Origin: a virus
Taxonomy: Duplodnaviria > Caudoviricetes
DNA length: 64,000 nt
Virus record (IMG/VR): IMGVR_UViG_3300025066_000012
Span: 32,001 to 96,000 of that record
Reading direction: 5' to 3' (one strand)
Part shown: piece by piece, positions 25,821 through 32,188 of the stretch
How positions within the stretch are numbered: the stretch's first letter is position 1
Layout: each line of letters starts with the position of its first letter
Translations under genes and position numbers: made by a program
Notes under the pieces: generated by a model
Database searches by the model: none
Seen by the model: only the letters and a program-made list of their open reading frames with translations
Told to the model about the DNA's origin: nothing

Positions 25821-26438
25821 TTAACCTTTCAATAGAAACAGAAGCTTTTCCTTATCTGCATCCGAAGCAGCCTCAAAGACTGCTTCAATATTTCCGAAGC
25901 CTTGATCATTCTTGACCTTATAATCAATGATGAAGCTTAGATTCTTATAGAGAATATTGTGGATATACTTGCTGGTAGCAGCAGCATAAACAGCAGCTTC
26001 AGCAGCACAAGCCGCAGTAGCAGCTTCAGCGGCAGCATAATAAGCAGCAGCACAAGTAGCAGCTTCAGCGGCAGCATAATAAGCACAAGTAGCAGCTTCA
26101 GCAGAATAAGCAGCAGCTTCAGCAGCACAAACAGCAGCATAAGCAGCAGCACAAGTAGCAGCTTCAGCAGAATAAGCAGCAGCATAAGCAGCTTCAGCAG
26201 CACAAGCAGCAGCATAAACAGCATCAGCAGCAGCATAAACAGCATCAGCAGCATCAGCATCAGCAGGATTCCTCAGCCATGCTTCAGCAGTTTCGATTGC
26301 TTTCAAAGGTCGTTTATCCTTCGGATACACCTTCTCAAAGAGAGGCAGAACTTCTCTTGCAAAGATGCAAGCAACCCAAGCGGACAGAGGCTTGTCGAGT
26401 CTTAAGTCTTTAACGGATAAGAGGCTCATTGTCTTCAA
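25821..26438 (-). CDS. Imm5-like helical domain protein with Ala-rich repeat tract
   Basis: ACIFAREVLPLFEKVYPKDKRPLKAIETAEAWL followed by AAYAAAEAAT-type repeats. Confidence 0.7.
   Translation of the reverse strand: MKTMSLLSVKDLRLDKPLSAWVACIFAREVLPLFEKVYPKDKRPLKAIETAEAWLRNPADADAADAVYAAADAVYAAACAAEAAYAAAYSAEAATCAAAYAAVCAAEAAAYSAEAATCAYYAAAEAATCAAAYYAAAEAATAACAAEAAVYAAATSKYIHNILYKNLSFIIDYKVKNDQGFGNIEAVFEAASDADKEKLLFLLKG
25975..26265 (-). repeat. GCT-codon-rich degenerate tandem repeat
   Basis: Repeated gcagcagcttcagcag / gcataagcagcag units. Confidence 0.9.
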
Positions 26439-26533: not shown

Positions 26534-26802
26534 CTACAATTTAGGCGCGGGAACTGTTGCGTCAAGACTCGTTGCAGATTCCTTTTCACGAGTCTCGATT
26601 AAGCGGTCCAGATACCACCTTGCCTTCTTCAAATCTTCCAGAACATTGTCATGCTTTTTCCGGCCCTAGATATATACTTAACAGTATTTCCCAAATGGAA
26701 TCCCAGGTCCCATGCTTCGATAACTTTAATCGTTTCATAAACCGAAGAGTCTCCCTGGGCAGCGCCGCTCTGATAGTGATTCGGATGTTTTACATTGCTC
26801 AT
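26534..26802 (-). pseudogene. Second DUF3310 paralog with a 1-nt frameshift
   Basis: MSNVKHPNHYQ...LGNTVKYISRAGK, then -1 frame KHDNVLEDLKKARWYLDRL...; break in A5 run at 26655-26659. Confidence 0.85.
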
Positions 26803-26813
26803 TTATTTCTCCA

Positions 26814-27486
26814 TTATTCCAACCTTCCCTTTAAAAGATCACTAAATTTAGTAACCTTGCCAGTCCTGTGATCTGTAACTTTATCTCTTTGAATCTGATA
26901 AGTTTTAATCTTATCTCCCCTCATTCCCGAGCCAACCTGAGAGGATCTAATCCTTGAGCGTTTTTTCCCAAGCGTATCAGATTCTATCTCATAAAGCTTT
27001 GCCCGAAGTAATCTTAAGGCGTTCTCTTTATTCAGGCGTTGAGAGCGCTCCTGCTCACATCGCACAGATATCTGAGTTGGGATATGCTTTAGCTGAACAG
27101 CAGAGTCAGTTGTATTCCTGTGCTGACCTCCCGCTCCAGAGCCACGACAGGTTTTCCATTCAAGATCTTTTTCTAAAATCTTTATGTCAGCCTGCTTAGG
27201 CTCCTCTAAAACTGCAACAGTTATTGTTGAAGTATGAATTCGCCCTCTTTTGTCAGTAGGGGATGCTCTCTGAAAACGATGACCCCCCGCTTCTCTGCCA
27301 AACATCTTTAAAGCATTCTTCCCTTTTACTAGGGCGATTATAATCCCTGGACGAGAATCTATTAGGCTTAAGCTAAAGAGAGTTCCGGCGACAGACCTTG
27401 GCGTAAATTCCAAATTGATCTTTAACAAGAAGTTTGCTGTCCCTGCCGCCTTCGGCGGCTCTAATCTCTAATATAATAGAATTCAT
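26814..27486 (-). CDS. Class I peptide chain release factor homolog lacking domain 1; needs +1 frameshift at CTT TAG C (27378-27372); about 223 aa
   Basis: AAGGAG SD plus MNSIILEIRAAEGG...RRNSL-TAG; +1 frame continues SLSLIDS...EAGGHRFQRASPTDKRGRIHTST...GSGAGGQHRNTTDSAV...ERSQ...KIKTY. Confidence 0.92.
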
Positions 27487-27568
27487 ATCTACTCTCCTTA
27501 GTTTGTTCTGGTTTAATACCAGAAGCCATAATCATTTTACCTAGAATAATCTCCGTCAACAATCCATT

Positions 27569-31924: not shown

Positions 31925-32188
31925 TTATTCTCCCTCTTTGCTAGAACGCAAGTCTGTTGCTATCAATTTTTTATCCCAAGCCTTATTAAATTCTTCTTTT
32001 AGAAAATTACTAATTGCAGAGTCATCATATTCCCACCCTACAACTTCGCCATGAGACAAACCTTTGGCCGCCTCTGTAACAAGATATTCATCAATTGCTC
32101 CCTTATCATTTATATCGAAGTCGCTCAAATCTATATCGACTTCCGCTTCATGAGTAAGGATATAATCTATGGTTATTTTAATTTTCAT
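31925..32188 (-). CDS. Hypothetical protein
   Basis: Coupled ORF. Confidence 0.65.
   Translation of the reverse strand: MKIKITIDYILTHEAEVDIDLSDFDINDKGAIDEYLVTEAAKGLSHGEVVGWEYDDSAISNFLKEEFNKAWDKKLIATDLRSSKEGE

Follow-up and report, generated by a model that had tools for sequence, protein, structure and literature searches.

We describe a viral gene that appears to encode a release factor of the RF1 type reduced to domains 2 to 4, and whose full-length product is probably made through a +1 frameshift built like that of prfB, the gene for RF2. Autoregulatory recoding has its textbook example in the prfB frameshift. Here the same cassette seems to have been built a second time, at another position, in a viral RF1-type gene and with any of the three stop codons. 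The gene lies on the minus strand of a 64,000-nucleotide stretch of DNA (positions 32,001 to 96,000 of IMG/VR record IMGVR_UViG_3300025066_000012; hereafter the window), which is part of a 113.5-kb virus contig of 40.8% GC.

Anatomy of the split gene

The elements of the locus, in window coordinates, are the following.

27494..27499, minus strand: Shine-Dalgarno (SD) sequence AAGGAG, 7 nt 5' of the ATG at 27486, recognized from the sequence
27373..27486, minus strand: ORF1, 37 codons and TAG, covering the first strand of domain 2 and helix alpha-5 (EIRAAEGG motif)
27382..27386, minus strand: GGAAC, vestige of an internal SD-like stimulator, 3 nt 5' of CTT (family consensus GGAGG)
27372..27378, minus strand: +1 frameshift heptamer CTT TAG C, with slip codon CUU, amber stop and a weak-context 3' C
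26814..27374, minus strand: ORF2, read in the +1 frame and running from AGC (Ser38) to TAA; it encodes the remainder of domain 2, the GGQ-bearing domain 3 and domain 4
27255..27263, minus strand: stop-codon recognition tripeptide Ser75-Pro76-Thr77 (SPT), in the place of RF1 PxT or RF2 SPF
27123..27131, minus strand: GGQ (Gly119-Gly120-Gln121), the peptidyl-tRNA hydrolysis motif; G119 and G120 are invariant and Q121 nearly invariant in the family

ORF1 starts at ATG 27486, encodes the peptide MNSIILEIRAAEGG...RRNSL and ends at TAG 27375..27373, while ORF2 is open in the +1 frame from AGC 27374 through TAA 26816..26814. Reading CTT as Leu, skipping one T and resuming at AGC gives a joined product, P0001, of 223 amino acids. 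The sequence 5' of the slip codon, GGAAC-TCT, is a poor SD. The initial annotation had described a strong SD before a 37-codon ORF that ends in CTT TAG C, with the internal SD of prfB only weakly mirrored, and both the coordinates and the description hold.

A minimal release factor of the RF1 type

What does the joined frame encode? Comparison with NCBIfam profiles places ORF1 on RF1 positions 105-137 and ORF2 on positions 157-332, so that ORF1 is indeed, as first proposed, the beginning of release-factor domain 2, continued in the +1 frame by the remainder including GGQ. The joined product scores 200 bits against RF1 (below the cut-off of 400), 153 against RF2 and 76 against PrfH (cut-off 167). 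Pfam PCRF is matched with 69 bits (cut-off 24), over profile positions 100-194 only, and Pfam RF-1 with 111 bits (cut-off 35). Domain 1 appears to be absent, because the ATG and its SD stand directly before domain 2 and the RF1 profile match begins at position 105.

Residues 88-312 of Thermotoga maritima RF1 align with P0001 without a gap across the junction. Leu37 falls over the conserved Trp that follows RF1 helix alpha-5, and SPT over the PVT tripeptide. The frameshift site corresponds to about residues 121-122 of the T. maritima protein (K-G-W|N), in domain 2, which upholds the earlier view that a slip codon and 3' C identical to those of prfB occupy a non-homologous site. An AlphaFold (AF2) model of P0001, built on 28 family sequences, has a mean pLDDT of 89.7, with values above 90 around the junction. 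It places a strand at residues 3-12 and a helix at 15-34 (pLDDT above 90), and the junction between that helix and a strand at 38-45. In Foldseek comparisons the model matches ribosome-bound RF1 with a TM score of 0.90 and an rmsd of 2.0-2.1 A, as against a TM score of 0.64 for PrfH. Sequence and model together identify the predicted product as a minimal class-I release factor, RF1 type, consisting of domains 2-4 only.

The residues of the RF1 type that read the third stop base are kept, Gln72 being invariant and Thr85 nearly invariant in the family. In the window copy the tripeptide departs from PxT and reads SPT; across the family the consensus is PPT. Work by Ito et al. in 2000 reportedly suggests that a tripeptide beginning with Ser and ending in Thr might have a broader specificity. 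A codon-specific release reaction does not need domain 1, as stated in a passage of PMC1586002.

Several relatives (L001, L036, L048 and L058/L069) carry a deletion of about four residues that removes the PxT loop, as in QRTSNGRIHSS, and retain GGQ. All of these keep an internal stop at the gating codon, within the +1 cassette in L001, L048 and L058/L069 and as an in-frame TGA in L036. Such loop deletions hint at altered or lost codon specificity.

Conservation of the split across the family

A profile scan of IMG/VR returned 341 relatives, of which the best 80 were tabulated, corresponding to 74 unique genes from contigs of huge phages. These fall into five classes.

+1 split, CTT followed by TGA: 44 of 74 unique genes
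+1 split, CTT followed by TAG: 10 of 74 unique genes
+1 split, CTT followed by TAA: 3 of 74 unique genes
Uninterrupted: 8 of 74 unique genes
In-frame stops in place of the shift: 9 of 74 unique genes

An internal stop of some kind is thus found in 66 of the 74 members. Every one of the 57 split genes among the 74 (from the best 80 of 341) is split at the identical codon, directly after CTT. Immediately 3' of the gating stop, 47 of these 57 have C, 9 have G, 1 has A and none has T. A core resembling an SD, 4-5 nt long and ending 2-4 nt before CTT, is present in 45 of the 57 and in 0 of the 17 unsplit genes (Fisher p = 2e-9; kinship is ignored in the SD and stop counts). Uninterrupted members have TTT GAR, CTC GAR or similar sequences at the site, without an SD, so a single inserted or deleted base interconverts the split and unsplit forms.

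The initial annotation had called the site an amber version of the RF2 frameshift and had asked whether CTT-TAG-C with an SD is kept at this alignment column. A conserved, programmed prfB-type split is what the family displays, with CTT plus a stop in 57 of 74 members and an SD core in 45 of those 57, but the amber codon does not define it, TAG being the stop in only 10 of 57. Homologs uninterrupted at this point are a minority, 8 of 74.

Individual relatives carry the same message. The gene of L005, present on IMG/VR contigs of 211 and 106 kb, is 77% identical to that of the window, has a 37-codon ORF1 and keeps CTT TAG C intact, while the flanking codons on both sides of it have changed; no SD-like element precedes its slip codon. 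In GenBank the nearest phage, LR745208.1 (485 kb), also has an ORF1 of 37 codons, which ends in GGAGG-GGT-CTT TGA C, the cassette in its canonical prfB form. Among six amber-type genes, CTTTAGC is the sole invariant block of 7 nt, and ORF1 is evidently under amino-acid conservation. In a search of 5.8 billion proteins, 108 of the best 120 matches were gene calls comprising ORF2 only, whose N-termini are what the cassette encodes when read in the +1 frame. Among those that show the junction, 41 read GG-x-F-D/E, which implies TGA; 34 read F-S, most likely TAG, and 3 read F-N/K, for TAA. Judged by this conservation, the split is a programmed +1 frameshift, neither a sequencing error nor the mark of a pseudogene.

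Some members deviate. L008, L009 and L036 have a single TGA or TAG exactly at the frameshift codon (37/38), at loci that otherwise look standard-code. L002, L079 and L084 are also among the members with in-frame stops instead of a frameshift. L076 and L077, the same gene on two independent contigs, have TGA at codon 44 and TAG at codon 52, a pair of stops that, on the sequence, no single code change explains.

Stop codons and stimulators

Does the kind of stop follow from the kind of factor? No link was found between stop type and recognition loop: each of the stops is found together with PPT, PPN, SPT and deleted loops. Comparison of the gating stop with TGA/TAG usage in flanking ORFs or with GC gave a weak, non-significant tendency toward the commoner of TGA and TAG. 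Nor is there a sign of a downstream RNA stimulator in the window or in L005, where the 79 nt 3' of the site fold worse than shuffled sequences (z +1.4). In L005, the 69 nt ending at the slip site (2547-2615) form a predicted hairpin that pairs CUUUAG (-18.8 kcal/mol, z -3.3); the window has no equivalent upstream hairpin (z +0.2). Since the window cassette has neither an SD nor a substitute RNA structure, its frameshift efficiency may be low.

Across the family the SD is frequent in the cassette and, with the window as an example, apparently dispensable, while CUU, a stop and a 3' base other than U are the parts that look fixed. That T never occupies the +4 position, that UAA, the stop read by both host release factors, is rare, and that the SD is tied to the split state fits selection for slow termination. 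The property conserved by these alignments is, as we read them, gating by a slowly terminated stop and not RF1-specific sensing.

Proposed mechanism and its alternatives

How, then, might the full-length factor be made? Ribosomes would initiate at ATG 27486, read 37 codons and pause there, the P site holding CUU (Leu37) and the A site UAG. Should termination in the weak UAG-C context be slow, the peptidyl-tRNA-Leu would re-pair from CUU to UUU, decoding would restart at AGC, and the full 223-aa factor would follow; without the slip, a 37-aa peptide would be released. Factor yield would then fall as UAG termination in the infected cell speeds up and rise as it slows, a rate set by host RF1. The phage factor itself would also set that rate if the product reads UAG, giving negative feedback as in prfB. 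The slip is proposed because the anatomy of the cassette is identical to that of prfB, and a stop selected for slow termination leads one to expect more factor whenever termination at the gating codon, here UAG, is slow. On these grounds we consider it likely that the factor is made by a prfB-type P-site +1 slip with an output inverse to the UAG termination rate.

Whether the amber copy of the window regulates itself is close to an even question, tilting slightly toward no. Self-feedback is plausible because Gln72 and Thr85 are kept and domain 1 is dispensable for codon-specific release. It is held back by the SPT tripeptide in place of PxT, by the UGA gating of most relatives and by the independence of stop type from the recognition loop. 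For an RF1-type factor, with PxT and Gln, reading of the UGA found in 44 of the 57 split relatives is unexpected, so self-feedback cannot be the logic of the family as a whole.

Another possibility is a circuit in which the cassette senses host RF1 only and the phage factor, with its altered SPT loop, does not read UAG and so exerts no self-feedback. In the UGA-gated majority, whose decoding residues are nonetheless RF1-like, it is probably a host factor that reads the stop, and L001, L048 and L058 have lost the PxT loop yet retain the cassette. For the window copy, however, the retention of Gln72, Thr85 and the Thr of the tripeptide makes UAG reading the default expectation, and we regard a purely host-directed sensor as unlikely, if still a serious candidate. 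It would be a sub-case of the termination-coupled slip proposed above, not a contradiction of it.

A frameshift might instead be constitutive, setting a fixed low ratio of full-length factor to 37-aa peptide, or serving a peptide with a role of its own, with cellular release-factor levels having no meaningful effect. Since an excess of release factor is toxic (PMC12421855), selection could favour plain attenuation, and the occurrence of all three stops, their exchange between close relatives, their lack of a link to the recognition loop and the absence of an SD from the window cassette would all be in keeping with it. Any slip at a stop codon in the A site must, however, compete with release factors, which builds in some dependence on termination rate; the strongest termination context, T at +4, is never used and UAA occurs in only 3 of 57, both of which point to selection for slow termination; and a weak start signal would be a cheaper means of attenuation. 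A constitutive device is accordingly improbable in our estimation.

Production of two polypeptides, with ORF2 started independently, or decoding of UAG in frame, as in a recoded phage, we hold to be very improbable. In relatives, the SD-like motif inside the gene might in principle bind ribosomes, and some family members have an in-frame TGA or TAG. Against independent initiation, the +1 frame offers no start codon close to the junction, whether in the window gene or in L001. Read-through or recoding of TAG in the window contig was ruled out on three counts. The zero frame past TAG has no similarity to release factors and reaches a stop after 42 codons; the code of the contig is standard, long ORFs covering 88% of it and 126 of them ending in TAA (81), TGA (26) or TAG (19); and the only tRNA on the contig is one tRNA-Ile, with no suppressor tRNA and no code-change module. 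The invariant CTT would be unexplained by either reading. A gene broken by a one-base insertion, through assembly error or decay into a pseudogene, is scarcely credible: indels do exist in the contig, as the nearby DUF3310 split at the A5 run 26655-26659 attests, but the same +1 split with invariant CTT plus stop in 57 independent, diverged genes, bacterial chromosomes included, together with the conserved amino acids of ORF1 and the fact that CTTT is no error-prone homopolymer, speaks against it.

The termination-coupled slip can be extended to a wider picture, which we put forward tentatively and with appreciable doubt. A minimal RF1, carried by huge phages and by a few bacteria into which it has passed, would be wired to a convergently evolved termination sensor that one base can reset to RF2 (UGA), RF1 (UAG) or both (UAA). 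The phage would thereby monitor host termination and supply a back-up factor upon its failure, for example under host shut-off or a ribosome-targeting defence. Amber lineages would close the loop on the factor itself and so constitute the first autoregulatory frameshift of the RF1 type.

Evolution and distribution

In a tree rooted with cellular RF2 and RF1 and obtained by quick tree searches, the genes that lack domain 1 form one group (SH-aLRT 93) whose first branches are uninterrupted. Nested inside it is a large clade dominated by CTT TGA. This topology is consistent with the frameshift having arisen once, following the loss of domain 1, and UGA looks like the ancestral stop. Amber would have arisen at least three and up to nine times. 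UAA appears in the tree as three singletons, and close relatives differ in stop type; UAA is the only one-step route between UGA and UAG that preserves a stop. Uninterrupted forms nested among split ones point to losses of the frameshift. The window gene and that of L005 are a well-supported amber pair in which the SD has been lost in both.

Among the members examined in the GenBank phage set, the only other split one belongs to LR745208.1, an uncultured huge phage, and no cultured phage in that set has a close full-length relative. Copies of the cassette are also present in some bacterial assemblies. An amber-type GGAGG-GGN-CTT TAG C with a full SD occurs in Archangium gephyra SDU49 (L087/L172) and Pyxidicoccus fallax DSM 14698 (L089); other Myxococcota and a few other phyla carry TGA. 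The A. gephyra SDU49 copy lies at about 3,543,000 of the chromosome, in a genome that also has normal RF1 and RF2. The gene was found in 2 of 61 genomes of the Archangium order. A prophage was considered for the Archangium copy and rejected, its neighbours being ordinary cellular genes (glycosyltransferases, an MFS transporter and a 5'-nucleotidase). Its place among cellular genes and its presence in only 2 of 61 genomes make it look acquired.

Relation to known systems

How far does the viral device resemble prfB? In prfB the cassette consists of an SD, a 3-nt spacer and CUU UGA C, and the regulated gene, as here, is that of a class-I release factor. The phage gene shares the CUU slip codon, the stop in the A site and the 3' C, and most relatives add a GGAGG-type SD 3 nt upstream. 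Unlike prfB, it is RF1-like and has no domain 1. The site lies at codon 37 in domain 2 rather than at codon 25/26 in domain 1. The stop is UAG in the window and UGA, UAG or UAA in the family, and the window, again unlike prfB, has no functional-looking SD. On this comparison the novelty lies in the gene family, in where the site falls and in which stops are used; the mechanism is expected to be the same as that of prfB.

The prfB device has been regarded as confined to RF2 and to UGA, rarely UAA, and never UAG (PMC12421855; PMC1586002). A 2025 survey of prfB in more than 12,000 genomes found TGA in 98.6% of motifs and TAA in the rest, with TAG in 0 of 8,164 (PMC12421855). The same survey reports no programmed frameshift in prfA (PMC12421855), and a reviewer comment describes RF1 genes as being without such a device (PMC1586002). 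Our full-text literature search turned up no account of frameshifting in genes for RF1-type or phage release factors. The papers on phage release factors and huge phages mention release-factor genes and no frameshift, and a review of how release factors evolved is silent on both phages and frameshifting.

PrfH (RF-H), which is paired with RtcB, is similar in having no domain 1, a decoding-like domain with GGQ, and a sporadic, mobile distribution. The phage factor is nevertheless far closer to RF1 in both sequence (200 versus 76 bits) and fold (TM 0.90 versus 0.64); its gene is accompanied by neither RtcB nor any conserved neighbour, and PrfH has no frameshift. The RF1 and RF2 genes of recoded phages (Lak, Jade and crAss-like; 10.1101/2021.08.26.457843) are likewise phage-borne class-I release factors. 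The in-frame TGA or TAG of some family members might be expected in recoded phages, whereas the window contig is standard-code. No frameshift is mentioned in that work by Borges et al. (10.1101/2021.08.26.457843).

What can be learned from such a family? It constitutes a natural experiment on the requirements of the cassette and offers a handle on why large phages carry termination factors of their own. Compact, stop-specific frameshift sensors could be of use in synthetic biology. The amber copies in cultured myxobacteria make the device testable.

Genomic neighbourhood

Around the locus are phage genes for a baseplate protein, an SbcC-like nuclease, GroEL, an IMPDH/GMP-reductase-type enzyme and DUF3310. 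Pfam and PHROGs scans of seven ORFs of the window, all lying no more than about 4 kb from the gene, showed no RtcB. No neighbour family is common to more than 4 of the 74 loci, which argues against an operon partner.

The DUF3310 gene, just 3' of the release-factor gene on the minus strand (26534-26802), is itself split at the A5 run 26655-26659, its C-terminal part (KKARWYLDR...) lying in the -1 frame after GCC GGA AAA AGC. The homologue in L003 (3692..3961) is uninterrupted. The split may be either a homopolymer indel of assembly or real decay. A 205-aa ORF at 25821-26438, also on the minus strand, shows weak Imm5-like similarity (25 bits), and its long middle part is Ala-rich and imperfectly repeated, with units of the AADAVYAAA type; the repeat is also open on the opposite strand and in other frames.
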